Shown: positions 19,159 through 32,000 of the stretch, one piece after another
How the letters are laid out: each line of letters begins with the position of its first letter
How positions within the stretch are numbered: position 1 is the first letter of the stretch
NCBI GenBank assembly: GCA_963521185.1
Contig: CAUQTV010000013.1
Coordinates: 8,383-40,382 of the forward strand
Source: an uncultured Enterobacter sp.
Lineage (GTDB): Bacteria > Pseudomonadota > Gammaproteobacteria > Enterobacterales > Enterobacteriaceae
DNA: 32,000 bases
Direction: 5' to 3'
Notes under the pieces: model-generated
The model's input: only the letters and a program-made list of their open reading frames with translations
Databases searched by the model: none
What the model was told of the DNA's origin: nothing
Translations under genes and position numbers: made by a program

Positions 19159-21639
19159 GGCGGCCAGATGACCGCCTACCGCTGGCGCATGTTTATTCAG
19201 GTCAACAACTGGATCGGTTTCTGGGTATTTATCCTGTTCGTTCTGATCGCCTCATCCCTGTTCCTGTGGCGCACACCGCAGGAGATGCTGGATAACGGGG
19301 CACTTTACTGGTTCGCTAACCTGAATCAGAGCTTTATCGACCTCATGCCGGCCGGTGCCGGGCGGTTTTACGATGTTCATTATTACCACGCACCGACGCA
19401 GACAAATTATGTCCTCAAAATGACCCTGGTGCAGATTTATGGCGATCCGTACATGAATGCGATGGGGACGCAGGTGCTGGAGCAGCTGCAATGGGCAGCG
19501 CTGGCCAGTGGCATATTTTGCACCGGTGTGTTCGCCGCCATATCCTGGTATATTTCGCGTATCGGTAAGCAGGAGAGCGAAGATCAGTATATCTCCGGGA
19601 TGCAGCTGACGGATAAACCTGCTGACGTGAACCGGTTGCTGCGCCAGAACGGTGAGCTGTCCGATTTGCGCGTCGGGGAGCTGCATATGGTACAGCGCGC
19701 CGAGGTGATGAATTATCTCATTCACGGCACCATTGGCGTGGGGAAATCGACGATTATTCGCTGGCTGCTCGATTACATTCGCAAGCGCGGCGACCGGGCC
19801 ATTATTTACGATTCGGGCTGTACGTTTACCGAAACCCACTACGATCCCCGCACAGACATTATCCTGAACGCCCACGACGATCGCTGCGCCAACTGGCAGA
19901 TGTGGGGCGAGTGTGTGGATGCCGTCGATTACGACAACATGGCGGCCAGTCTTATCCCGGTTGAAGGGGATTCTGACCCGTTCTGGGTGTCCAGCTCGCG
20001 TACCATCTATGCCGACCTTGCCATCCGCATGTCCGCCGACCCCGATCGCAGTATCGAAAAATTCCTGAAAACCCTGCTGTCACTCAGCATGCAGAGCCTG
20101 CGTGAATACCTGGCGAACACGCCGGCCGCCAACCTCGTTGAGGAAAAAAACGAGAAAACGGCTATTTCGATCCGTTCCGTTGTCACCAACTACGCCAAAG
20201 CGCTGCGTTATCTGCAGGGCCTCGATGACGGTGTCAAACCGCCGTTCACCATCCGGGAATGGATGACCACGGAGAAATACGATAACAGCTGGTTATTTAT
20301 CTCCACGCAGGCCCGGCACCGTAAGAGCGTAAGGCCGCTGATTTCGCTCTGGGTATCGCTGGCCACCCTGATGCTGCAGAGCATGGGCGAGAACAGCGAC
20401 CGGCGCGTGTGGTTTATTTTTGACGAACTTCCCAGCCTGCAGCGCATTCCTGAATTCAACGAAACCCTGGCCGAAGGGCGAAAATTTGGTGGCTGCTTTG
20501 TCATCGGCGTACAGAACATGGCGCAGCTGGTTCACGCGTATGGCCGGGAGCTGGCGAAAAGTATGTTTGACCTGCTCAACACACGCATGTACGGCCGTTC
20601 CCCCAGTGCCGAAATGGCAGAAATTGTGCAGAAAGAGCTGGGCAATCAGCGCAAGCGCGAAATCCGGGAGCAGAACTCCTATGGCCTGGATACGGTGCGT
20701 GACGGCATCTCGCTCGGTAAGGACAAGGTTAACAACCCGATTGTCGATTACGAGCAGATTATGCGCCTGCCGAACCTGAATTTTTACGTGCGTCTGCCGG
20801 GGGAATATCCGGTGGTCAGACTGGGCCTGAAATACAAGAAACTGGTGAAACATAACACCGGCCTTATTGAGCGAAACATCCGTGATGTGCTGAGTCCGGA
20901 GCTGGAAAAAGTTATCCAGGAGAACGAGCGGGCGGCCACTGCGGCAGGCCTTAACTTCCCGACCGGGGATGAAGTGCTGGAAAGTAACAGCGCCACTCCC
21001 GAAACCGCGCCTGCTGTTGCCCCGCAGCCGGTGCCGGAAAAAGCAGAAAGCAAACCCGCAAGGCCTGAAGCGGCAAAAGCTCAGGCAACAGCGTCAGCAA
21101 AACCATTAACTCCAGGCCCGGTGCCAGAGAAGGTATCTGTACCGCTTACCCGTCCTCCTGCTGAACCTGTAACCGGTCCTGCCGTTAATTCCCGGACGCC
21201 TGAACCTGCGGCAACTGAAACGCCGGGCGGTAACGTTGTTTCCCTGCGTCCAGTGCTGATACGACCCACACCACCTGTATCTTCGGTCGCACCAGAAAAT
21301 GTTCGTACAACGCCTGGTAAAGGTAAAGACGCACTTGAGGTGCTTAATCGCCGGCTTCGCCAGCCCGTCTCCAGCGCAGCCAGTAATGGGGGTGACGAGG
21401 ACGTTTCCGGGGGCGGGGAGTCTATGAGCCTCGATATGCACGTCACCGCGCTGGCGGAGGGTGGCCTTGAGCTTTCCACCGCTGGTACGCATGAGCGAAG
21501 CGACGACTATCCCGCTGATCACCGCGCCAGCAAAAGCCTGGCACAGGACGAAGAAAACATTCTGCTGCACCGCCATCCTGACGATCCGGGTTACAGCGAG
21601 TACGACCTTAATTACGACGACGGAGAACGTGACCTATGA
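19108..21639 (+). CDS. traD: TraD, type IV coupling protein (VirD4/FtsK-like ATPase)
   Basis: MSFAGKNLTQGGQ resembles the F TraD N-terminus, so the start may be the ATG at 19129. There are two N-terminal TM helices. Walker A GTIGVGKST lies at nt 19726-19752. RRVWFIFDELPSL (Walker B) and KFGGC.V.G.Q are present. A long Pro-rich linker and an acidic C-terminus follow. Confidence 0.95.
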   Translation: MTAGKFPMSFAGKNLTQGGQMTAYRWRMFIQVNNWIGFWVFILFVLIASSLFLWRTPQEMLDNGALYWFANLNQSFIDLMPAGAGRFYDVHYYHAPTQTNYVLKMTLVQIYGDPYMNAMGTQVLEQLQWAALASGIFCTGVFAAISWYISRIGKQESEDQYISGMQLTDKPADVNRLLRQNGELSDLRVGELHMVQRAEVMNYLIHGTIGVGKSTIIRWLLDYIRKRGDRAIIYDSGCTFTETHYDPRTDIILNAHDDRCANWQMWGECVDAVDYDNMAASLIPVEGDSDPFWVSSSRTIYADLAIRMSADPDRSIEKFLKTLLSLSMQSLREYLANTPAANLVEEKNEKTAISIRSVVTNYAKALRYLQGLDDGVKPPFTIREWMTTEKYDNSWLFISTQARHRKSVRPLISLWVSLATLMLQSMGENSDRRVWFIFDELPSLQRIPEFNETLAEGRKFGGCFVIGVQNMAQLVHAYGRELAKSMFDLLNTRMYGRSPSAEMAEIVQKELGNQRKREIREQNSYGLDTVRDGISLGKDKVNNPIVDYEQIMRLPNLNFYVRLPGEYPVVRLGLKYKKLVKHNTGLIERNIRDVLSPELEKVIQENERAATAAGLNFPTGDEVLESNSATPETAPAVAPQPVPEKAESKPARPEAAKAQATASAKPLTPGPVPEKVSVPLTRPPAEPVTGPAVNSRTPEPAATETPGGNVVSLRPVLIRPTPPVSSVAPENVRTTPGKGKDALEVLNRRLRQPVSSAASNGGDEDVSGGGESMSLDMHVTALAEGGLELSTAGTHERSDDYPADHRASKSLAQDEENILLHRHPDDPGYSEYDLNYDDGERDL

Positions 21640-24600
21640 TGTCAGTCGCCCCCGTAGCCTCGGCAGGCACTGCCGCCGGTTATTACAGCCATTCTGATAA
21701 TTACTATTTCCTCGGCAATCTGCAGAGCCACTGGCTGGGTGAAGGATCCAGGGAGCTGGGCCTCGACGGGCCTGTCCGGAGTGACTCGCTGACGGCGGTG
21801 CTGGAAGGCCGTCTGCCGGACGGCGGACGGCTGGGGAAAGAAATTAACGGCAATCATGTCCACCGGCCGGGGCATGACCTGACGTTTTCTGCCCCCAAAA
21901 GCGTGTCCATTCTGGCGCTCATTGGCGGCGATAAACGCATGGTTGATGCGCACAACCATGCGGTGCAGGTGGCCGCCGGGTATGTGGAGAAGCTGATCTC
22001 GGCGCGGGAAACCAAAAATGGCGTCACCTCTATTGTGCATACCGGAAAAATGGTGGCCGCCGCGTTCACGCATGACACCTCACGCAATCTCGATCCGCAA
22101 CTGCACACGCACCTTATCGTCGCCAACATGACTGAGCTGGGTGGCAAGTGGAAAGCGCTGGCCACAGATTACATTCATGACGCGGGTTTTATCGAAACCG
22201 TGATGAAAATGCAGGTCACGCTCGGCAAAATCTACCGTACCGCGCTGCGTGAACAGGTCGAAGCGATGGGGCATAAGGTGGAGGAAGTCGGTAAGCACGG
22301 CATGTGGGAAATCCGGGGCGTACCGGAGGAGGTCCGGGAGGAATACTCCTCGCGCGGGCGCGAGGTGCAGGGGGCGGTCGGTGCTGAAGCCACCCTGCGA
22401 AGCCGGGATGTGGCGGCAAAAGACACCCGTCGTGCGAAAGTTGACCCGTCCCGCATCAGGCTGATGGAGCGCTGGCAGACACAGATGAAGGAGAAAGGCT
22501 TCGATCTGAAAGGCTATATGGACAGCGTGACGCAAGCTGAAAGCGACACGGCGAGTCTTCCGGAACAAATCCCGTCGACGGCAGACGTTCAGACACGGTC
22601 ACAGCCAGACAGCACACCTGAAAAAGTCCCTGCGCGGGACAGTATACCCGATGCGGGAAAAGTCACTGAACGTGATGTGGCGCGTGAAGAACCGTCCCGC
22701 CCTGTCACATCGACCCCGTCGGTGATGCAGACCGGAACGCACGCTGTGTCACCTGCTGCACAGGGGGCTAAAGCCGGACCTGAAAAACCGCACATCAGGG
22801 CGGAGGTATCCGACGCCGTGCGCCATGCCATTTCCCATTTAAGTAACGACAAAACCCGTTTTACCTGGGGTGAGCTGATGCTGACGGCCACCGAATTCAG
22901 TGATCAGCTGCCGGCCGTGGCCGAGGTCAAAATGGCTATCGATGCCTCCCTGAAGGAGGGCATGATCGTCCCGCTCGACAGTGAAAAGGGCGTGTTCACC
23001 TCGCGCATTCATCTCCTTGATGAGCTGTCCATCCAGGCACTGAGCCAGGAGCGGCTGAAAGACGGGAAGGTGGTGAGCTTTGCCAGGCCTGAGCAGTATG
23101 CGCCCCGTGCGCTTGAGGCCGTGGAGAAATCGCCTCTCGTGTTGATGAATGCCCCGACCGGCGTGGCCGGGATCCGGGAGCTGACTACACAGCTGACAGA
23201 TATTTCCACCGCGCACGGGCGTGAGGTGACGGTTCTGGCCAGTTCGGCGGAGCGGGCCACGTCTCTCGCGAAGTCCGATACGTTGCGCGATCGCCTCATC
23301 AGTCGTTCGCATGTGCTGAGCGGCGATTTCAGCCTGAAGCCGCAGGGCACGCTTATCATTGAAGGTGCCGAGCGTCTGGGCCTGAAAGAAACGCTGGTTC
23401 TGCTGGGGGAAGCGCGTGAAAAAGACGCGCAACTCGTTTTTCTCGACAGCGCGGGACGTCAGGCAAACGGAAACGCCATGTCGGTACTGGAGTCAGCCGG
23501 CGTGGAACGCAGCCGGCGAACTGAGCCTGCGCCGGGCCTTGAGACGGAAGTGGTCAGCATTGCCGACAAACGTGACCGCTATGCTGCCCTGGCCAGTCGG
23601 TTTGCTGAACTCAGCGCCGGCAGTGAGCCGGTCACGGCCGTCGTGCTGGGGCAGCGGGAGCAGAAGCACCTGACGGGGCTTATCCGGGATGCGCTGCAGA
23701 ATGCCGGACAGCTTGAGCGTGACGGTGTCACGGTTGAGGCGCGTTCCCCGGTCTGGCTGGACAATAAAACACGCCGAATGTCCGGCACGTACCGGGCCGG
23801 GCAGGTACTGGAAGATCGCAGTGATGCAAAGACCACCCGGCATTTCGTCATTGAGCGTATCCACGAAGACACCCGCGTCCTGTCCCTTATTGACAGTGAT
23901 GGTGTACTTTCCCGTATGAAAATGTCTGAACTGACTGCCGACTGGCGTCTGTATGACAGCGAGACGATCAGCATCAGCACAGGCGAGCAGCTGATCGCCA
24001 TCGCCGGTGACAGGGAGGCTGGCCTGAAAGCGAAAGACCGGTTGCAGGTCATCGGGTTCAGCGCAAAAGGTATTCAGGTGGAGCGCGATGGCCAGACAAT
24101 GACGCTGCCGGCGGATCGGCCTCTTTATGTGAAACATGCCTATGTGGCCGCGCCGGGCGGGCGGGATAATGATACCGGTGTGGTACTGGCCGCGCTGAAT
24201 TCACGTGATATTTCAGCACGCACCATGAATTCACTGGCGCAGTCCGGCACACGGGCTGAAGTGTTTACAGCTGAAACGCAGGACAGGGCTGAAGCCCGGT
24301 TGCAGCGTATGAACAGCAACAGCTCTCCGGTGCAGCTTGTTCGGCACCTCAGCGGGAAGGACGATGTCAGTGTTGCGATCAGTGCCCTGCATGATGGGGT
24401 GAAAAGTGAGGCAGGGCTTGCAGTCTGGCGCGCCATCAATGACCAGCGTGGGGTGACATTTAGCGAACTGACATTGCTTGCAAAGGCAGCAGAGTATCAT
24501 CCTGACATCGGTGCGGTGGGGCAGCATATCAGCACGATGGTCAGACAGGGCGATCTGCTGCCGGTGTCGGTCAGGGGTGAACCCGCCCTGGTCGCCCGCG

Positions 24601-27125
24601 CCACGTGGGAAATGGAGAAAGCCATTATCCGGGTGATCGATGAGGGTAAAAACACGCAGGAACAGCTGCTCGAGCAGGTTGATCCGCGTTTACTGGACGG
24701 CCTGACCGGCGGTCAGAAAGCCGCCGCCAGATTGGTGCTGGGCACAACCGATCAGTTTATCGGTATTCAGGGTTATGCCGGTGTCGGCAAGACCACACAG
24801 GTTAAAGCCGTTAAAGCCGCCATTGAAACTTTGCCTGTCGCCGGACGACCGGTGCTGAGCGGTCTTGCACCCACACACCAGGCCGTAAAGGAACTTAAGG
24901 ACACAGGGATGCCCGCGCAGACGGCGAAGTCTTTCTTGGTTGAGCATGACCAGCGTGTCAACTCCGGCGAAAAACCTGACTACCGTGAACGTGTCTTTCT
25001 TATCGATGAATCCTCCATGATCGGAAACCAGGATACCGCTGCCGTCTACCTTGCGATTCAGGCTGGCGGCGGACGCGGTGTCTCGATGGGGGATACTGAT
25101 CAGTTTGAATCGGTAGACTCCGGCGCGCCGTTTAAACTGGTGCAGGAGCGCAGCCCGATGGATGTGGCCATTATGAAAGAGATCGTCCGTCAGAAAGATG
25201 TCCAGCTGAAAGCTGCAGTACACGACATCATTGATAACCGTATCGATGCCGCCATCAGACGCATTGAGGCGCAGCCGGCCGGTAAAATCCCGCGTATGGC
25301 CGGGGCCACGCTTCCAGATTCCGGTATTGTCACCACAGAAGATGCCGTGGGCGACATTGTCCGCGACTGGACAGAGCGCACCCCGCAGGCCCGGCAGAAT
25401 ACGTTAATCATCACGCAACTGAACGCCGACCGGCAGGCCGTCAACGCAGGGATCCACGCGGAATTAGCCGGGCGCGGGGAACTGGGGGAGAAAAGCATCA
25501 CCGTCCCGGTGCTGGAAAAAATGTCCCATACCCGCCATCAGTTTAATAAAACCGCTGCGTGGCAGGCAGGCATGGTGGTGAAACGGGGCGACCGGTATCA
25601 GGATGTGGTTGCGGTGGACAAAAACGGCTCACTGGTCACGGTCAGGGATGAGGACGGCAGACTCGGTATGGTGTCCCCCCGCGAGCTTATTACCGCCGAC
25701 GTGGAGCTGTTTACCCGCAGCGGGATGACGGTAAACGCCGGTGATGAGCTTCGCTTTACCGCCACCGACCGGGAACGTGGCCAGACCGGTAATCAGCGGT
25801 TTACCGTACAGTCCGTGAACGATAACGGTGACATTGTCATGAAGGGCGCGGCCGGAACGAAGATCATCAATCCCGCGCAGGTGCGTGCAGAGCAGCATAT
25901 CGATTATGCCTGGGCGGTCACCGGTTACGGCGCACAGGGGGCAAGCAGCGAGTACGTGATCGCGCTGGAAGGCACGGAGGGCGGGCGTAAGTATCTTGCA
26001 TCACAGCGGGCCTTCTACATTTCTGCCTCCCGTGCAAAAGAGCATGTGCAGATCTACACCGACGAAAAGAGTAAGTGGGTGGCCGCCATGAAACAACCCG
26101 AAAAGGAGGTGAAAACCGCGCATGATGCCCTGAAACCCGAAACACAGCGCCAGCAGGCAAAAGCCATCTGGGCGATGGGGCAGCCGGTCACTAAAACCGC
26201 CATCGGACGGGCGTGGGCACGCCATCAGTCAATGGCTGAACACAGCCTGACGGCAAAAATCATCCCGGCCACCCGGCGTTTTCCGGAGCCGGCGCTGGCA
26301 TTACCGCTGTATGACAACAATGGCAAAGGGGCCGGGCTGGCCCTGATCTCCCTGATTGCCAGTCCTGAAGGGCGACTGACACAGGGTGATATACGCATGG
26401 TGGCCACGGAAGGTGCCAGCGCGGCCGTACTCCAGCGCAGTCAGACCGGTAACACCCATGTTGTCAGGCATCTCAGCGATGCCCTGACCGCCGTGCGTGA
26501 GCATCCGAAAGACGGGGTGGTGTGGCAGACCGGCGGGGAGAAACCGTCCGCACACCTGATGAAAGTCAGCCGGGGGGTACATCAGGAGGAGGATGCAGCC
26601 CGCATCAGAGCGGTGTCAGGCTTCGTTCCGGAAATTACGCTGCCCGTCACGCGGGACACGCCGGAACGGGAGGGGGAACAGCTGTTTGTGCTTCAGGCCG
26701 CAGAGGCGCTGCGCAGGGCGGCGGAACAGGAAAGAGCCGGCGCGGTTGTGGACACGCCGACGCCGAATGCCCGTGATAAACCAGAGTCTGTCACGCTGCC
26801 CGCCGAAGAAAGCATTATCCTGCCGGCCGACCTGACGCAGGCGCGCGGAATCCAGGCATTCACGCCGGACAGCAGCACGCTGCGCAAACTCACACACGAC
26901 CTGACCGGCAACACCGGAGAACGGATCCCCGCTGGGTTGATGCGCGACGAGAGCGGCACTGACCCGGAGCGCGCGGCGTCAGAACTCGCCAGTGCCGCTA
27001 AGGTGGTGAATGAACTGGCGGCAACCGAAAGAGATATGGTACGCCTGTCTGCCGAAGGCGATCGGGGTCGTGTCATCGAGCATGAAGAACCCGTTCATAC
27101 CCGCACGATCCAGAAAGAACGTTAA
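21636..27125 (+). CDS. traI: TraI, MOB-F relaxase / DNA helicase I
   Basis: The start forms an ATGA overlap with the traD stop. MMSVAPV.SAG.AAGYYS..DNYY carries the catalytic Tyr pairs. HDTSRNLDPQLHTHLIVANM is the His-triad motif. Helicase Walker A GYAGVGKTT lies at nt 24771-24797, and LIDESSM is present. 1829 aa against 1756 aa in F. Confidence 0.97.
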   Translation: MMSVAPVASAGTAAGYYSHSDNYYFLGNLQSHWLGEGSRELGLDGPVRSDSLTAVLEGRLPDGGRLGKEINGNHVHRPGHDLTFSAPKSVSILALIGGDKRMVDAHNHAVQVAAGYVEKLISARETKNGVTSIVHTGKMVAAAFTHDTSRNLDPQLHTHLIVANMTELGGKWKALATDYIHDAGFIETVMKMQVTLGKIYRTALREQVEAMGHKVEEVGKHGMWEIRGVPEEVREEYSSRGREVQGAVGAEATLRSRDVAAKDTRRAKVDPSRIRLMERWQTQMKEKGFDLKGYMDSVTQAESDTASLPEQIPSTADVQTRSQPDSTPEKVPARDSIPDAGKVTERDVAREEPSRPVTSTPSVMQTGTHAVSPAAQGAKAGPEKPHIRAEVSDAVRHAISHLSNDKTRFTWGELMLTATEFSDQLPAVAEVKMAIDASLKEGMIVPLDSEKGVFTSRIHLLDELSIQALSQERLKDGKVVSFARPEQYAPRALEAVEKSPLVLMNAPTGVAGIRELTTQLTDISTAHGREVTVLASSAERATSLAKSDTLRDRLISRSHVLSGDFSLKPQGTLIIEGAERLGLKETLVLLGEAREKDAQLVFLDSAGRQANGNAMSVLESAGVERSRRTEPAPGLETEVVSIADKRDRYAALASRFAELSAGSEPVTAVVLGQREQKHLTGLIRDALQNAGQLERDGVTVEARSPVWLDNKTRRMSGTYRAGQVLEDRSDAKTTRHFVIERIHEDTRVLSLIDSDGVLSRMKMSELTADWRLYDSETISISTGEQLIAIAGDREAGLKAKDRLQVIGFSAKGIQVERDGQTMTLPADRPLYVKHAYVAAPGGRDNDTGVVLAALNSRDISARTMNSLAQSGTRAEVFTAETQDRAEARLQRMNSNSSPVQLVRHLSGKDDVSVAISALHDGVKSEAGLAVWRAINDQRGVTFSELTLLAKAAEYHPDIGAVGQHISTMVRQGDLLPVSVRGEPALVARATWEMEKAIIRVIDEGKNTQEQLLEQVDPRLLDGLTGGQKAAARLVLGTTDQFIGIQGYAGVGKTTQVKAVKAAIETLPVAGRPVLSGLAPTHQAVKELKDTGMPAQTAKSFLVEHDQRVNSGEKPDYRERVFLIDESSMIGNQDTAAVYLAIQAGGGRGVSMGDTDQFESVDSGAPFKLVQERSPMDVAIMKEIVRQKDVQLKAAVHDIIDNRIDAAIRRIEAQPAGKIPRMAGATLPDSGIVTTEDAVGDIVRDWTERTPQARQNTLIITQLNADRQAVNAGIHAELAGRGELGEKSITVPVLEKMSHTRHQFNKTAAWQAGMVVKRGDRYQDVVAVDKNGSLVTVRDEDGRLGMVSPRELITADVELFTRSGMTVNAGDELRFTATDRERGQTGNQRFTVQSVNDNGDIVMKGAAGTKIINPAQVRAEQHIDYAWAVTGYGAQGASSEYVIALEGTEGGRKYLASQRAFYISASRAKEHVQIYTDEKSKWVAAMKQPEKEVKTAHDALKPETQRQQAKAIWAMGQPVTKTAIGRAWARHQSMAEHSLTAKIIPATRRFPEPALALPLYDNNGKGAGLALISLIASPEGRLTQGDIRMVATEGASAAVLQRSQTGNTHVVRHLSDALTAVREHPKDGVVWQTGGEKPSAHLMKVSRGVHQEEDAARIRAVSGFVPEITLPVTRDTPEREGEQLFVLQAAEALRRAAEQERAGAVVDTPTPNARDKPESVTLPAEESIILPADLTQARGIQAFTPDSSTLRKLTHDLTGNTGERIPAGLMRDESGTDPERAASELASAAKVVNELAATERDMVRLSAEGDRGRVIEHEEPVHTRTIQKER

Positions 27126-27140
27126 CAGGAGAATATACAC

Positions 27141-27926
27141 ATGGTTTTTAAACAGACCGTTATGCCCTTAATAGTTACAACATTCATTTTATTTTCAGAA
27201 AACACACTGTCTTCGACCCCGCCGACAACATTCACTGCAGACCAGGAAGCCCGGATTGGACAGATCGCGGGGGATTATCTCCTGGCTCACCCGGAAATAC
27301 TGGTTAAGGTCAGCCAGAAACTTCAGCAGCAACAGTATGAGCGAATGCAGCTGCGTTTCGCGATGAAGGCTATGGAGCACCAGAGCAACCTGCTTAACGA
27401 TCCGGACACACCGTCAGCAGGTCCTGACAGCGCGGGCGTTGCGGTGATTGAATTCTTTGATTATCAGTGCATCTTCTGCAGTCAGCAGGCACCGGTGATG
27501 GAGCAAATCATGGGGACCAGCGCGGATGTGCGTTTTATTTTTAAGGAGTGGCCTGTCTTCGCTCAGAAATGGCCGGCATCAGAAAACGCCGCGTTGCAGG
27601 GGATCAATATATGGAGACAGCACGGCAGCAAAGCCTACATGGCCTATCACAACGGCCTGTACCGGACTGGTCACAATGAAGGGAAGCTGACGACAGCGGA
27701 TATTGATGCCGTTACAGAGGCAACGGGCGTGAAGATGCAACCCGCAGCCGACCGTCATGACGTTCTGGCCAGAACAGATGCACTGGCTCAGGATCTGGGA
27801 CTGACCGGAACGCCAGGCATCATCGTCATGCCGGTAAAAAATGCGACGCCTGACGCCATTACCGTATTCCCCGGCATGGCAACAGCGGAACAGCTGCAGG
27901 CTGCGATTGTAAAAGCCAGGCGGTAG
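27141..27926 (+). CDS. DsbA-family periplasmic thiol:disulfide oxidoreductase with N-terminal extension (CxxC = CIFC)
   Basis: AGGAG lies upstream. It has a signal peptide. The thioredoxin-fold motif FFDYQCIFCSQ places the CxxC at nt 27468-27479, and a cis-Pro-type GTPGIIV motif is near the C-terminus. An N-terminal helical region precedes the fold, as in ScsC/DsbG-like proteins. It occupies the position of traX in F. Confidence 0.8.
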   Translation: MVFKQTVMPLIVTTFILFSENTLSSTPPTTFTADQEARIGQIAGDYLLAHPEILVKVSQKLQQQQYERMQLRFAMKAMEHQSNLLNDPDTPSAGPDSAGVAVIEFFDYQCIFCSQQAPVMEQIMGTSADVRFIFKEWPVFAQKWPASENAALQGINIWRQHGSKAYMAYHNGLYRTGHNEGKLTTADIDAVTEATGVKMQPAADRHDVLARTDALAQDLGLTGTPGIIVMPVKNATPDAITVFPGMATAEQLQAAIVKARR

Positions 27927-28167: not shown

Positions 28168-28197
28168 TTGCTTAAGAAGACGGTCGGACGGCATAAT
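28168..28197 (+). promoter_or_regulatory. Candidate sigma70 promoter for a short + strand RNA
   Basis: TTGCTT (28168-28173), an 18-bp spacer, then CATAAT (28192-28197). The predicted start near 28204 coincides with the first base of the 16-nt repeat R1. Confidence 0.3.
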
Positions 28198-28203
28198 CTT
28201 TCC

Positions 28204-28269
28204 GAGCAAAGCCTTACCAGTCACCTAAACCGGTGGCGCAAAAAAACCACCCTGGCAGGTGGTTTTTTT
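28204..28269 (+). ncRNA. Putative ~65-nt sRNA (or 3'-UTR-derived RNA of the traI-dsbA transcript): 16-nt 5' seed plus intrinsic terminator
   Basis: R1, GAGCAAAGCCTTACCA (28204-28219), is followed 20 nt later by the T1 hairpin and a 7-U tail. No ORF. Both R1 and T1 have exact second copies at 29391-29406 and 29165-29192. Confidence 0.35.
28240..28269. terminator. Bidirectional intrinsic terminator T1 between the convergent dsbA-like gene and the minus-strand 217-aa gene
   Basis: The sequence is A7-CCACC-ctggca-GGTGG-T7. The A and T runs can extend the stem to 11 bp and give a U tail on either strand. Confidence 0.8.
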
Positions 28270-28384
28270 GTTTTAAAAAGCCTGTCATGCAGAAGCTACT
28301 GCAGCGGAGTGTATTCTGCATACATCCAGCAAGCCACTGGCAGATCCTGCAGCCAGTTCAGCACGCCATACGTTCGCCGTTCTT

Positions 28385-29038
28385 TTATTCCTCGCCCTCT
28401 GCATTTGCGTGTTCCGGGTTTACAGTGAATGGAAAATTCGACGAAATCAGAGCCGAGATTTTTTCAATCCGCCGTCGTGCACGGCAGATAATGATAAACT
28501 GCAGAAAGAAGAAATACTCTGCGGCAATGAAAAAAACAATCTGAACCAGTGTCAAACCCAGCTTCAGTGCATGCAGCTTGCCAGTACTGTCCGGCCTTAA
28601 ATCAGGTGAAAGCAGTTCAAAAAAATACGTAAAGGCTGAAAAAAGTTCAGTCAGGAAAAAAAACGCCATCACAAGCGCCAGCAGCATTATTTTCACGCGG
28701 TCCCGTCGACAGCGAAAGCAGCGGGTGAACTGTACATCAAGTCCGGAAATCTCGAAAAGATCCAGAGTTCGCCGGCCCGTAGAAACGAGATAAATTATTT
28801 CAGCTGCATTGCTCAGCGGCAACACTTTTTGCAGGAAGGACCAGGGTAAAGGCCTGATGTTGTGTAGGCGTGAGACGCAGGATTCCACGAGATACGCCAC
28901 GGGATCATTCTTCGCCAGTTCCCGCGACAGCAATTCGGCGATCACTGTTTTGTTCTTTGCCGTCGTCTGGCAATAAACCAGGAATGGGCTGACAAACGCA
29001 ACCAGCAATGGCAAAACGCTCAATATAAAGGCTTTCAT
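28385..29038 (-). CDS. Hypothetical 217-aa membrane protein (about 3 TM segments)
   Basis: Strong SD GAGGTG lies 5 nt upstream of the ATG. A candidate promoter is CTGAGT-17 bp-CATAAT, with a GTGCC-g-GGCAC palindrome in the spacer. TM-like segments are FILSVLPLLVAFVSPFLVY, IMLLALVMAFFFLTELFSAFTYFF and LGLTLVQIVFFIAAEYFFFLQFIII. GC is lower than in the tra genes. No family recognised. Confidence 0.7.
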   Translation of the reverse strand: MKAFILSVLPLLVAFVSPFLVYCQTTAKNKTVIAELLSRELAKNDPVAYLVESCVSRLHNIRPLPWSFLQKVLPLSNAAEIIYLVSTGRRTLDLFEISGLDVQFTRCFRCRRDRVKIMLLALVMAFFFLTELFSAFTYFFELLSPDLRPDSTGKLHALKLGLTLVQIVFFIAAEYFFFLQFIIICRARRRIEKISALISSNFPFTVNPEHANAEGEE

Positions 29039-29164
29039 TGCTTCACCTCACACTCTTATCATCTGCTGGCTGTTACACCCGCAAAAACATTATGCGTGCC
29101 CGGCACTTAATACTCAGTGGGCCTGACGGAACAACATTCTGCCAGGCTCTGTTCGCAACGATGT

Positions 29165-29192
29165 AAAAAACCACCCTGGCAGGTGGTTTTTT
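29165..29192. terminator. Bidirectional intrinsic terminator T2, an exact 28-nt copy of the T1 core
   Basis: AAAAAACCACCCTGGCAGGTGGTTTTTT is identical to 28241-28268. It lies 14 nt downstream of the stop of the minus-strand small ORF. Confidence 0.75.
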
Positions 29193-29206
29193 AGTTTGTA
29201 CTTGAC

Positions 29207-29410
29207 CTAAACGCTGATGCTGATACTTATCTGGCTGACATTGATCAGCCAGTTGCTCTGTCCCGTGAGCAGTTGGCTGATCACGGCAAGAACAATCACA
29301 CACAGAAAGTGTCGTCTGTTCATCGACGGTTGTCCTGTGAGGGTGGCGTCCGCGGCTATCATCACTTCATGCACCGGACCGTCTTTCGTTGAGCAAAGCC
29401 TTACCACCAT
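29207..29410 (-). CDS. Candidate small ORF (67 codons from ATG 29410, or 38 codons from ATG 29323) encoding a basic-then-hydrophobic peptide
   Basis: GGGA lies 6 nt upstream of ATG 29410, and AGGA lies 9 nt upstream of ATG 29323. The C-terminal 38 aa are MNRRHFLCVIVLAVISQLLTGQSNWLINVSQISISISV. The ORF ends just before T2. The 85-aa version in the ORF track (start 29464) lacks an SD. Coding status is uncertain. Confidence 0.3.
   Translation of the reverse strand: MVVRLCSTKDGPVHEVMIAADATLTGQPSMNRRHFLCVIVLAVISQLLTGQSNWLINVSQISISISV
29391..29406. repeat. R2, the exact second copy of the 16-nt repeat GAGCAAAGCCTTACCA
   Basis: Identical to 28204-28219. Left flanks are partly similar (CGGAC..TCTTTC). 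On the minus strand it covers +5 to +20 of the ATG at 29410. Confidence 0.85.
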
Positions 29411-29667
29411 AAATGATCCCGGCAAACTGATGAGTGATTCTGGCAAAATCACCGGCCGGGGCATGAGAACTGTATATCAGAACCGCCAATATGTTGGGTC
29501 TGAAACATATTCTAAGGCCTATATATAGTGATTCACATCAATGAAGTTATCGATTTTATTGATGCAGGACAAAGTAAAACCCAAACCGTACAGAAGACGC
29601 GGATCAGGGGAAATGTAAATTTTCAGGAGCGATTGTTTTTGTTCGGAAATTCAGGCTTAAAGCGTCT

Positions 29668-30654
29668 TTACTCGGCCAGTCGAAGACGTTCCCGGGCCTG
29701 ACGAAGGCGATCGTCGCTGCGGTGATCATACTTTTGCGTGGTGTGAACACTTTCATGCCCCATCGCATCCCTGACGGTGATCAGGTCTTCCCCGTTATCC
29801 AGCATGGCGGTGGCGAAGGTGCGACGCAGATCATGGGGCGCGCAGGCGGCCACCCCGGCCTCACAACGTCGGGTCTGCAGAATATGGTAAATGGCCTGGT
29901 CGGTCATGCGCCGGTCAGTTACGTCATCAAAACGCCGGATTCGGGTAAACAGCGGGCCCTCCTGCTCGCCTCGCACCTGGTCGATCCACAGCTGAAGACG
30001 CTGCCACGTGCCCGCCGGCATAAACGCCAGTCTTTCCTTGTTCCCTTTGCCCAGAACCCGCAAGGCCTGATCCCCTGAGATAATGTCTGCCATGCTGAGG
30101 GCGACCACTTCAGACCGGCGCAGACCGCAGCCAAGCAGCACTCCAAAAATCGCCGCGTCCCGCAGGCCAAGGGCACGTTTATCCTGTTCGCAGGTCGTAA
30201 AAAGTGCCCGTATCTCGGCGTTACCGAGCGCGCGACCACGGGGAAGACGACTCCCGCGCACGGAGCGGATAAGGCGAATCTGCTGCCAGGTGTCCACATC
30301 CGTGAGCTTCTGCATCCAGCTTTCGGTGGCCACACCTTTCAGGGCGGACAGGTAGGTATTGATCGTTGCCGGAGCTTTCCCGGAATCACGCAGAAGCTCA
30401 ATGACCGCCTGGATGTGGTGGCGGCGCAGCAGCGGCCAGTTACAGGTATCAGGAGAATCAGCCCCGAGCATCCGGGCAACAATGCCCAGGAAAGACGCCA
30501 TGGTCTTCCGGCTGCGCGGCGAATTGAGACTCAGCAGATAGGCCCGTGCTGGATTGACCGGGTGCTGACCGTTCAGGGCTAATCCACCGGGACGCGGATC
30601 CTGTGCGGAGACCAGCTGGCCGGAAAGCGGCGCGTCATCGTGCAGCGGTGTCAT
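29668..30654 (-). CDS. Tyrosine site-specific recombinase (XerC/XerD / phage-integrase family)
   Basis: AGGAG lies 5 nt upstream of ATG 30654; the ORF track GTG at 30744 is probably too early. Catalytic signature: GLRRSE (Arg I), GKGNKER (Lys), HDLRRTFAT (His-x-x-Arg), GHESVHTTQKY (His and the Tyr nucleophile). An N-terminal SAM-like core-binding region is present (INTYLSALKGV). Confidence 0.9.
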   Translation of the reverse strand: MTPLHDDAPLSGQLVSAQDPRPGGLALNGQHPVNPARAYLLSLNSPRSRKTMASFLGIVARMLGADSPDTCNWPLLRRHHIQAVIELLRDSGKAPATINTYLSALKGVATESWMQKLTDVDTWQQIRLIRSVRGSRLPRGRALGNAEIRALFTTCEQDKRALGLRDAAIFGVLLGCGLRRSEVVALSMADIISGDQALRVLGKGNKERLAFMPAGTWQRLQLWIDQVRGEQEGPLFTRIRRFDDVTDRRMTDQAIYHILQTRRCEAGVAACAPHDLRRTFATAMLDNGEDLITVRDAMGHESVHTTQKYDHRSDDRLRQARERLRLAE

Positions 30655-30953
30655 GTCAGCTCCTGAAAAAGTGTCGTGAGTGCGGGTGAAGGGTTGTTCG
30701 GCCGGCTCAGGAAAGATGCGGTGCGCTACGCACGTTTCGGGCACAAATCCTCACGCAAATGATAAAACAAAGACTCTACTTTTTCAAAGATACATTTTAA
30801 TAAGTAGAATATTTATACATACTATTGGAATCTTAATGATAGAATCAGGACGTTTACAAAATTGGTTTCAAACAGAACAAGTTTTCAACTGCTTGGGGCG
30901 GTAGCATCCCTTTTCGACATTAAGAACTTTATTTTAATCAAAAGGTTATATTT

Positions 30954-32000
30954 ATGACTAACTTTCTTTTCGATTATGTGAATAATAATAAAATTAAAAT
31001 CATATTAGGGGTATATGGGAAAAACAAAGGCAAAGGTAATTTCGGAAAAATAAAGGCATTAAATAATTTATCAATTGAAACATCATCATTTCAAAAAGAG
31101 AAACTTAAAAGCTTTGCACATTCATGCTATAAAAATGTTTCGGTTAGGAATTTACTTAATCTTTCGGGTTTCAATAAAAAAACATATCTTGATTTAGTAA
31201 AAGAGAGGAATTTACCTAATGAATTTATATTAGAAATGTTGTTAGAGTTCGTTAAAGATAACAGAAATGATTTCAAGCATTTTGTTATGATAAAAAACAA
31301 ATTAGAAGAGCACTTTCTAAGGTCAGAGTTTTCTCAAGCAATCGAAGTACTCAAGCTAATCGAAGAAAAATTTGGAAAATCTATATGGTCAACTGATGTT
31401 GAAATGGCAATAGCCTCTACGCAAAAAAAGACAGCAAATAAAGAAAATTTCATTGATTCTTCATCTCCGCAGTTGTACCACATAACAAATTATCTTTATA
31501 ATAAACATACATCTCACAGCGCTCTTTCATTCAAACAAAAATCAAAAGTTAATATTATTGACTCAATAAGAATTAATAGCAACAGAAAAAATTACGCTGA
31601 TTTTCTTTCATTGCTGTTACTTCCATTTGGTATGGACAATGCTCGATCTTTAGATAATATTATACAATATTCACAAAAACTTTTCCCTATTGATAAATAT
31701 GTATTTATTAGGAAGGCTATTTCAGAGCATGTTTCCACTAAAATATCAAACAACAACCTTATAGAAGATGATGTAAAGAAATTTGTCATGTCAATGGCAG
31801 AAATAGATATTGATGAATCATGGACGGGAATGACAAATGTAATTAATAACAAACCCTTAACCAACACAGATATTAAAGTTCAAGAGATAATAATATCCTA
31901 CACCGAAGGTGATTATGATGCTGTTATAGTAAAATGCAAAGAGTATTTCACACAGCATCCGAGGCAGCTTATTTTAATAGATGTATTAGCGAGATCCATA
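30954..32000 (+). CDS. Large AT-rich ORF of unknown function, 5' part (349 codons, open at the window end)
   Basis: I translated it by hand from ATG 30954 (AAGG 8 nt upstream) and found no in-frame stop through nt 32000. It is absent from the ORF track, presumably because it has no stop. It is Lys/Asn/Ile-rich. Helical-repeat-like segments (FSQAIEVLKLIEEKFGKSIW; GDYDAVIVKCKEYFTQHP) suggest TPR-like repeats. No family recognised. Confidence 0.6.
   Translation, partial: MTNFLFDYVNNNKIKIILGVYGKNKGKGNFGKIKALNNLSIETSSFQKEKLKSFAHSCYKNVSVRNLLNLSGFNKKTYLDLVKERNLPNEFILEMLLEFVKDNRNDFKHFVMIKNKLEEHFLRSEFSQAIEVLKLIEEKFGKSIWSTDVEMAIASTQKKTANKENFIDSSSPQLYHITNYLYNKHTSHSALSFKQKSKVNIIDSIRINSNRKNYADFLSLLLLPFGMDNARSLDNIIQYSQKLFPIDKYVFIRKAISEHVSTKISNNNLIEDDVKKFVMSMAEIDIDESWTGMTNVINNKPLTNTDIKVQEIIISYTEGDYDAVIVKCKEYFTQHPRQLILIDVLARSI

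Follow-up and report, generated by a model that had tools for sequence, protein, structure and literature searches.

A 32,000-nt stretch of DNA from an uncultured Enterobacter sp. (assembly GCA_963521185.1, contig CAUQTV010000013.1, positions 8,383 to 40,382, here called the window) carries two pairs of exact direct repeats close to a short open reading frame (ORF). The question raised by this locus is whether the repeats join a small RNA (sRNA) and a peptide mRNA into a toxin–antitoxin (TA) module of type I. A preliminary description of the window had proposed a par-like module of this kind, in which a + strand sRNA is complementary at two sites to the mRNA of a small hydrophobic peptide and the two genes lie apart by design. 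Based on a computational analysis of the window and its relatives, we consider it probable (about 0.72) that the locus belongs to a family of paired sRNA and small-membrane-peptide genes with type I TA anatomy, and it is treated here as a candidate module.

The first repeat, R, is 16 nt long (GAGCAAAGCCTTACCA) and occurs on the + strand in two exact copies only, R1 at 28204-28219 and R2 at 29391-29406. When at most two mismatches were allowed, 0.02 matches were expected by chance, and none of 100 shuffles reached two or more. The second repeat, T (28 nt, AAAAAACCACCCTGGCAGGTGGTTTTTT), is an exact direct repeat at 28241-28268 (T1) and 29165-29192 (T2), where 0.00 were expected in shuffled windows; when extended to 33 nt (28241-28273 and 29165-29197), the two copies are 97% identical. 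Neither R nor T is a product of chance, and the positions reported for both repeats, like all other coordinates in the preliminary description, were found to be correct.

Relatives were collected by megablast and blastn, in which homology to 29165-29620 extended over approximately 300-460 bp, and by an additional search with the T core. They share a compact module of approximately 460 bp. It is carried by about 390 Klebsiella plasmids, and 388 plasmids in PLSDB cover at least 80% of the Klebsiella version. The module is also found on a Citrobacter freundii plasmid, on 67-kb Salmonella plasmids and on Leclercia plasmids, while the T core search added one contig each of Kluyvera georgiana and Leclercia tamurae. 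P2-like prophages with the module are present in 150 of 5,426 complete E. coli genomes, two Peduovirus genomes have it as well, and 31 of the 33 IMG/VR contigs matching T hold it. The order is the same in every relative, with an R1-like sequence directly upstream of a single T and the small ORF and R2 beyond T. Outside R, the module is only 60-73% identical between clades, and it is unannotated in the relatives except for one 37-aa 'hypothetical protein' in one phage record.

The P2-like elements carry the module between replication gene A and the variable region preceding the portal gene. There it always follows gene A directly, at the edge of the variable region (e.g., NC_070905.1, 30063-30619), whose accessory genes differ from prophage to prophage (AAA ATPase, ImmA/IrrE peptidase and others). 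On the 67-kb Salmonella plasmids, an annotated DinQ-like type I toxin gene, dqlB, is located approximately 2.5 kb from the module and ccdB lies nearby; several addiction systems are therefore clustered at that place.

On the + strand, the sRNA promoter (28168-28197) consists of a -35 element TTGCTT (28168-28173), an 18-nt spacer and a -10 element CATAAT (28192-28197), with the predicted start at G28204, the first base of R1. This promoter had been pointed out before; it is of the sigma-70 type and is conserved in the relatives: the pattern GTTGC..N17-18..GCATAAT, 7 nt, GAGC is kept in all nine aligned variants, and a simple promoter scan picks the same site in the Leclercia variant L004. The predicted sRNA, the candidate antitoxin, is 66 nt long (28204-28269, + strand) and is made up of the seed R1 (28204-28219), stem-loop 1 (28220-28237) and the terminator T1 with its U tail (28240-28269). 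In the window its predicted fold (-22.9 kcal/mol, z = -2.9) contains two hairpins and leaves the 16-nt 5' seed unpaired. Across the family, the predicted length is 66-75 nt and the first 13-17 nt, which correspond to R1, are unpaired. Among 12 distinct variants, seven of the nine pairs of stem-loop 1 have changed on both sides; none of 500 shuffles reached its covariation score, and pairing was 95.5% in register versus 48-63% in slid registers. Judged by these patterns of conservation, the predicted product is non-coding, small, and has a promoter and a terminator to itself.

The complement of R2 on the - strand (29391-29406) places UGGUAAGGCUUUGCUC in the peptide mRNA, where the sRNA seed is predicted to bind. 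Two alleles of R were distinguished: the window shares the A-type (GAGCAAAGCCTTACC) with Leclercia, Citrobacter and Salmonella, while Klebsiella, Kluyvera and the P2-like elements have the G-type (GAGCGAAGTCTTGCC). The three differences between them are present in both R1 and R2. When R1:R2 is considered as an intermolecular helix, 15 of its 16 positions pair in at least seven of eight haplotypes, and three pairs have changed on both sides. One-sided transitions were seen at position 6 in one Salmonella plasmid, at 13 in Kluyvera, at 14 and 15 in P2-like elements, and at 9 and 14 in the variant L070. Every one of them yields G·U or U·G on the predicted strands, and would yield A·C if the opposite strands were transcribed. 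The calculated energies of the seed duplexes range from -29 to -32 kcal/mol (-31.1 in the window), compared to -13.9 ± 2.2 for shuffled seeds, and an A-type sRNA on a G-type mRNA reaches only -15 kcal/mol, which is background level. R1 and R2 lie between flanks that bear no relation to each other, and outside R the module has diverged to the extent given above; the identity of R is therefore kept by selection. Thus, the sequences indicate that pairing between antitoxin RNA and toxin mRNA, a defining property of type I TA systems, has been maintained in evolution. Co-conservation of the repeats, raised earlier as a check, was borne out in the relatives, where R1 and R2 covary.

A different explanation would be that R1 and R2 are elements at the DNA level, either protein sites or remnants of a duplication kept alike by gene conversion, that T1 and T2 are insertion scars, and that no RNA-RNA regulation takes place. 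The duplication of T in the window is indeed a by-product of an insertion, and the R alleles, of which there are two main ones, differ by transitions only. On the other hand, the first base of R1 coincides with the +1 predicted for a conserved promoter, a covarying hairpin and a terminator come after R1, and its identity with R2 over 13-17 nt has been kept between non-homologous flanks while the remainder diverged. Moreover, each of the five one-sided transitions can be accommodated only as a G·U pair on the strands predicted to be transcribed, and R2 lies at a fixed distance from the ORF, adjoining covarying mRNA helices. We regard a purely DNA-level origin as very unlikely. As for the suspicion that the repeats are neutral duplication scars, T was indeed duplicated with the insertion in the window; for R, the covariation and the unrelated flanks speak against it.

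The candidate toxin gene is a 38-codon ORF on the - strand (29207-29323), encoding MNRRHFLCVIVLAVISQLLTGQSNWLINVSQISISISV followed by a stop codon, with the Shine-Dalgarno sequence AGGA at 29333-29336. It represents the last 38 codons (MNRRHFLCVIVLAVISQLLTGQSNWLINVSQISISISV) of a longer - strand ORF (29207-29464) that closes 14 nt before T2. That this frame ends there, and that its final codons encode a basic and then hydrophobic peptide, had been noted earlier; both points were correct, and this part is the conserved ORF. An ORF of 37-39 codons with a Shine-Dalgarno sequence is present in every variant (GGAG-type in most, AGGA in the window). Differences between clades are distributed over the first, second and third codon positions as 15, 2 and 12, as 5, 0 and 9, and as 5, 0 and 4, placing only 2 of 52 at second positions, and this conservation of second positions marks the ORF as coding for a hydrophobic product under constraint. 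At its N-terminus the peptide is basic; it continues with a hydrophobic core (Kyte-Doolittle maxima of 2.4-3.2 in an 11-residue window), contains the motif G-Q/S-x-S-(W/L), and alternates polar and hydrophobic residues in its C-terminal part. A small (<60 aa), hydrophobic and truly coding peptide gene, as expected of a type I TA module, is therefore present. A phmmer search against 1.84 billion representatives returned two proteins only, one of them the 67-aa call of the window itself, and a word-index protein search returned nothing but this 67-aa protein. Inside the ORF there is a 17-nt inverted repeat (29242-29283, 88% complementary, 8-nt gap), where the consensus fold places a partly covarying hairpin; this hairpin may be an mRNA stability or translation element.

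The mRNA of the peptide is predicted to start at 29501 on the - strand, 7 nt past a conserved -10 element and, by homology with the nrdDG promoter, 33.5 bp from the centre of FNR site 1 (see below). It would run from about 29501 to 29165, approximately 337 nt, in the window and over approximately 330 nt in the relatives, convergent to the sRNA. It would end on the - strand at T2 (29165-29197), a bidirectional terminator found by a terminator scan and a second copy of T1. The R2 core lies 76-79 nt upstream of the peptide ATG in all 12 variants and is bordered by two structures. The first is a hairpin in the 5' untranslated region (UTR), H1 (29418-29462, - strand), whose loop UUUGCCAGA holds UGCCAG, the complement of CUGGCA in the loop of the sRNA terminator. 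In the consensus fold of H1, changes on both sides were found in five of six outer-stem pairs and in one inner-stem pair, and no variant has lost the motif (U/A)GCCA(G/A/U) from the loop. The second is a cis helix in which GGUGGU (29403-29408), at the 5' edge of the R2 complement, pairs with GCCACC (29342-29347, - strand). It is present in 12 of 12 variants as GGUGGU/GCCACC, GGUGGC/GCCGCC or AGGGCAA/UUGCCCU, and ends 16-19 nt before the ATG. By inspection, an anti-Shine-Dalgarno reading of its 3' strand fits some clades only, and was rejected.

The preliminary description had assumed that pairing at R2 blocks initiation at an ATG at 29410. This ATG exists in the window, and its use as a start is not conserved in the relatives. 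A mok-like leader ORF beginning there was likewise rejected: Leclercia and Klebsiella have UUG or GUG in its place, a start codon is missing from the P2-like clade, the reading frame is not fixed with respect to the peptide ORF, and in the variants L021 and L006 the leader stops 39-42 nt before the peptide start. The 67-codon frame, also put forward as a possible product, is not conserved and stops early in the same two variants. R2 thus does not cover a conserved initiation site, since neither the ATG at 29410 nor the 67-codon frame is conserved. From the par-like layout proposed at the outset, the complementarity of the sRNA seed and terminator to a small-peptide mRNA stands, supported by the relatives and by the covariation of R, while the coverage of the initiation region does not.

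How would the sRNA then act? Pairing of its seed with R2 would repress synthesis of the peptide. This pairing may be preceded by a contact between loops, in which CUGGCA of the sRNA terminator, a loop of the YUNR type, meets UGCCAG in either H1 or the mRNA terminator loop. As the initiation codon is not covered, repression would most likely proceed by occlusion of an upstream ribosome standby or entry site, by duplex-triggered cleavage and decay, or by both, as for tisB/IstR-1, zorO/OrzO and dinQ/AgrB. These routes are favoured because the site lies far from the ribosome-binding site, no leader ORF is conserved, and the predicted accessibility of the Shine-Dalgarno sequence is unchanged. A switch in which sRNA binding sequesters the Shine-Dalgarno sequence was discarded, as blocking R2 leaves that accessibility unchanged. 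The peptide itself would be a membrane-active toxin, and the module would serve either to stabilise the plasmid or prophage that carries it or to bring growth to a halt.

The peptide mRNA has a promoter of an unusual kind. The region at 29509-29625 (- strand) aligns with 67-81% identity to the sequence that precedes nrdD in E. coli and K. pneumoniae. Approximately 130 bp around and upstream of the -10 are found in the chromosomes of these two species in front of nrdD, where there is no module. The alignment takes in both FNR boxes with their 31-bp centre spacing, the -10 and the first 15-25 or so transcribed bases. On the - strand of the window we located the -10 TAGAAT (29509-29514; TA(A/G)AAT is invariant in position across variants), an NrdR-box-like CACTATATATAG (29519-29530), FNR site 1 TTGATGTGAATCAC (29528-29541), FNR site 2 TTGTCCTGCATCAA (29559-29572) and a conserved upstream block that reaches AATTTACAT at about 29614-29622. 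The two FNR sites were assigned by homology with the published nrdDG 54-mer, in which site 2 TTGAGCTACATCAA is centred at -64.5 and site 1 TTGATGCAAAGCAC at -33.5 (PMC10245656). The NrdR-box-like element was assigned from the NrdR boxes that overlap an FNR site in PMC2892513. The nrdDG operon is activated by FNR and repressed by NrdR, and the NrdR box overlaps FNR site 1 (PMC10245656, PMC2892513). The window accordingly contains a matching -10 and two FNR boxes at -64.5 and -33.5, with 31 bp between their centres. If site 1 is set at -33.5, transcription would begin at 29501, which is also the base predicted from the -10. Of the NrdR boxes, box 1 (CACTATATATAG) shows good conservation in the window and in most of the plasmids, while box 2 (around +1 to +16) is variable; tandem NrdR boxes are defined by a spacing of 31-32 bp (PMC2892513). 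A simple promoter scan missed this promoter, which was located by conservation and by its homology with nrdDG.

The promoter of the Klebsiella plasmid module is 81% identical to the K. pneumoniae nrdD promoter, and that of the E. coli P2-like module is 72% identical to E. coli nrdD, compared to 61-63% to other modules. At the level of sequence, a module promoter is thus at least as similar to nrdD promoters of the genus that hosts it as to the promoters of other modules, which suggests either repeated exchange with the chromosome or host-specific tuning. The chromosomal counterpart differs in its product, as it drives a class III ribonucleotide reductase, whereas here a small-peptide mRNA on mobile elements is driven, and the homology stops within the first 25 or so nucleotides of the transcript.

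From these promoter elements we infer control of the module by FNR and NrdR. Transcription of the toxin would then rise under anaerobiosis through FNR, and probably on release of NrdR. A broader proposal, which we put forward tentatively and would not yet call the likelier outcome, is that mobile elements (IncF-type plasmids and P2-like phages) have given a par-like type I toxin the nrdDG promoter of the host, so that it would be transcribed in anoxia and when dATP/ATP pools are disturbed, held only by a constitutive sRNA. If true, this would be the first oxygen- and nucleotide-pool-sensing type I TA system, and it could serve as a gut-specific addiction module or as an abortive-infection trigger next to the P2 defence hotspot.

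The same promoter can be read in another way, namely that the RNA pair is real and the peptide is no toxin at all, being instead a small membrane or exported protein regulated by the sRNA and by oxygen, e.g., for anaerobic adaptation. An nrdDG-type promoter suggests condition-specific expression, the peptide is unlike any known toxin family, and its signal-peptide-like N-terminal half followed by alternating polar and hydrophobic residues would suit an exported product. The size and the basic-then-hydrophobic design of the peptide, its tight pairing with a dedicated and constitutive-looking sRNA and the common terminator are, in contrast, hallmarks of type I TA systems. In addition, the module is located exclusively on plasmids and prophages, and in the window the sRNA gene was kept even after the two genes had been split by 0.9 kb. 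We therefore hold a non-toxic role to be unlikely, and the toxin–antitoxin reading is retained below.

This split is caused by an insertion of 891 bp (28274-29164), as BLAST homology with Leclercia ends at 28273 and restarts at 29165. The insertion separates the sRNA gene from the peptide gene and is absent from all relatives outside the lineage of the window; two Logan contigs (L050 and L051) share the split form. The Leclercia plasmid pYUSHP29-2 shows the same traI-dsbA-[module]-recombinase context with an unsplit module and without the 217-aa gene that the window carries. T1 with its flanks is identical to Leclercia at 37 of 37 positions, and a copy of T is found on both sides of the insertion. 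The split arrangement is thus secondary and lineage-specific, since a plasmid with the same context is unsplit and the insertion is bounded by T copies, and it is not, as first suggested, the design of the system. Because T was duplicated, both complementary sites have survived the split, and the sRNA must therefore act in trans here. The insertion, located exactly at the module terminator, carries a gene for a predicted orphan membrane protein of 217 aa (28385-29038, - strand). No family match was found for this protein in Pfam, NCBIfam, PADLOC or PHROGs. Its best plasmid relative is full-length, 39% identical and unannotated on an Enterobacter plasmid, and more than 100 plasmids of Klebsiella and Serratia encode 'hypothetical proteins' with 49% identity to its N-terminal half.

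The window is part of an F-like plasmid of the Enterobacter type. The repeats are surrounded by traI (21636-27125, + strand), a gene for a ScsC/DsbA-like thioredoxin (27141-27926, + strand), the 217-aa ORF, the small ORF 29207-29464 and a gene for a Xer-like tyrosine recombinase (29668-30744, - strand). The closest plasmids are from E. kobei, with 91% identity over traD-traI-dsbA, and the module was not found at their traI-dsbA site. The module is thus a mobile cassette, distinct from the tra backbone. Directly after the recombinase gene, the G+C content falls sharply from approximately 58% to 27-31% (30800-32000) in a segment with no long ORF; this AT-rich segment is probably foreign.

In the relatives, one bidirectional T ends both convergent RNAs, and the two RNAs are therefore also complementary at their 3' ends. 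Several small plasmids of the ColE1 type have an RNAI whose 3' stem-loop contains the 22-nt T core without a single difference, when T is read in the direction of the peptide mRNA. The likeness to ColE1 RNAI (Rfam RF00106) is limited to this 3' hairpin, known in RNAI as a kissing loop. With 17.5-26.6 bits, the window stays under the gathering score of 47 bits and has no replication primer or origin context, while true RNAIs with the same hairpin, on small plasmids, reach 79-97 bits with the Rfam RNAI model. Owing to this identity, the sRNA terminator would be complementary to the RNAI hairpin, and cross-talk of the sRNA with co-resident small plasmids is conceivable. Many 2.5-kb contigs with this RNAI come from assemblies labelled Streptomyces, Micromonospora and similar, and look like contaminants.

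Several observations weigh against the type I TA reading. The peptide has no match in Pfam or NCBIfam even at E ≤ 10, and none in PADLOC or PHROGs. The covariation of R consists of two main alleles, transitions only, in related sequences. As the sole exception to the pairing, a G·A mismatch occurs at seed position 1 in one frequent P2-like haplotype, and a G-type sRNA could still pair with an A-type mRNA through wobbles. When R2 was forced unpaired in silico, the predicted accessibility of the Shine-Dalgarno sequence and AUG was unchanged in 12 variants. The -35 region of the mRNA promoter is poor, and the start site was placed by homology. Finally, the module was not found on pKPN3 (whole) or pKPN4 (50-100 kb) of MGH 78578, the one Klebsiella strain with data from differential RNA sequencing (dRNA-seq) and from RNA interaction by ligation and sequencing (RIL-seq). 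The RIL-seq study of that strain lists an Hfq-bound plasmid RNA of 243 nt, KpnR_124 (pKPN3, NC_009649.1, 50982-51224). This RNA shares its position with a 43-aa 'hypothetical protein', and its chimeric partners include ChiX and GcvB. It is unrelated to the module and may be another small-ORF/sRNA locus.

Could the module instead be a diverged member of a family that is already known, i.e., Hok/Sok, Ldr/Rdl, TisB/IstR, ZorO/OrzO, DinQ/AgrB or DqlB? We take the N-terminal half of the peptide to be loosely like the Hok transmembrane segment, which would count in favour of such descent, as would the sub-threshold Rfam matches to OrzO-P and AgrB over the terminator and the DqlB toxin gene approximately 2.5 kb away on the Salmonella plasmids. 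These Rfam matches (OrzO-P, 21 versus a gathering score of 60 bits; AgrB, 17.6 versus 40) lie over the terminator only and were rejected, and no Rfam family reached its gathering score in the window. Together with the missing Pfam and NCBIfam matches, the missing mok-like leader ORF and a convergent gene order with a common terminator, unlike that of all these families, they leave such descent extremely improbable. No account of the module turned up in the literature when it was searched by sequence strings, by keywords for type I TA systems and for P2-like prophages; the 'novel type I TA' of pOXA-48 is DqlB/AgrB and unrelated to it.

If confirmed, the module would be a new type I TA family in the best-studied bacteria. 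About 390 sequenced Klebsiella plasmids have it, some of them large resistance or virulence plasmids, and so do P2-like prophages in approximately 3% of complete E. coli genomes. It has escaped every Rfam, Pfam, NCBIfam and PGAP annotation that we examined. The par/Fst design of convergent genes, a common terminator and a short repeat would then also exist in Gram-negative elements, and the split copy in the window would offer a natural experiment for antitoxin action in trans. Capture of the nrdDG promoter would tie transcription of the toxin to oxygen and probably to nucleotide pools, and thereby bear on when such modules fire in the gut.

Among the known systems, the closest in design is par of pAD1 (Fst/RNA II) of Enterococcus faecalis. 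As in par, the genes are convergent and end at one bidirectional terminator; this was found in every relative, while in the window T is duplicated and the genes lie 0.9 kb apart. A short direct DNA repeat likewise adds complementarity between the 5' parts of antitoxin and toxin mRNA, the par antitoxin can also act in trans, and a YUNR-type terminator loop (CUGG) could start the contact in both. The differences are that par has two repeats at the initiation region, whereas the module has one of 13-17 nt located 76-79 nt upstream of the start codon. Furthermore, the module peptide does not belong to the Fst/Ldr family, as judged by the Pfam and NCBIfam searches (E ≤ 10), its hosts are Gram-negative plasmids and P2-like phages, and its toxin promoter is of the nrdDG type.

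With tisB/IstR-1, zorO/OrzO and dinQ/AgrB of E. coli, the module shares pairing of the sRNA in the 5' UTR far upstream of the ribosome-binding site, a small hydrophobic peptide and a link to a host stress regulon (LexA there, predicted FNR/NrdR here). Those genes are divergent and have no common terminator, and neither their RNAs nor their peptides are homologous to the ones described here. The resemblance to hok/sok of R1 lies in a small membrane peptide on plasmids and prophages, a long structured mRNA and an antisense RNA regulator; Sok is, however, cis-encoded over the mok start, whereas the module has no conserved leader ORF and neither a Hok/Gef domain (PF01848) nor an Rfam match. For ralR/RalA of the rac prophage, RalR is a DNase and not a membrane peptide, and the arrangement and sequences are unrelated. 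On sequence grounds, the module is not a member of the par, TisB/IstR, ZorO/OrzO, DinQ/AgrB or Hok/Sok families. It would rather represent a new and apparently undescribed family of a known kind of system, with the nrdDG-type promoter as its unusual feature.

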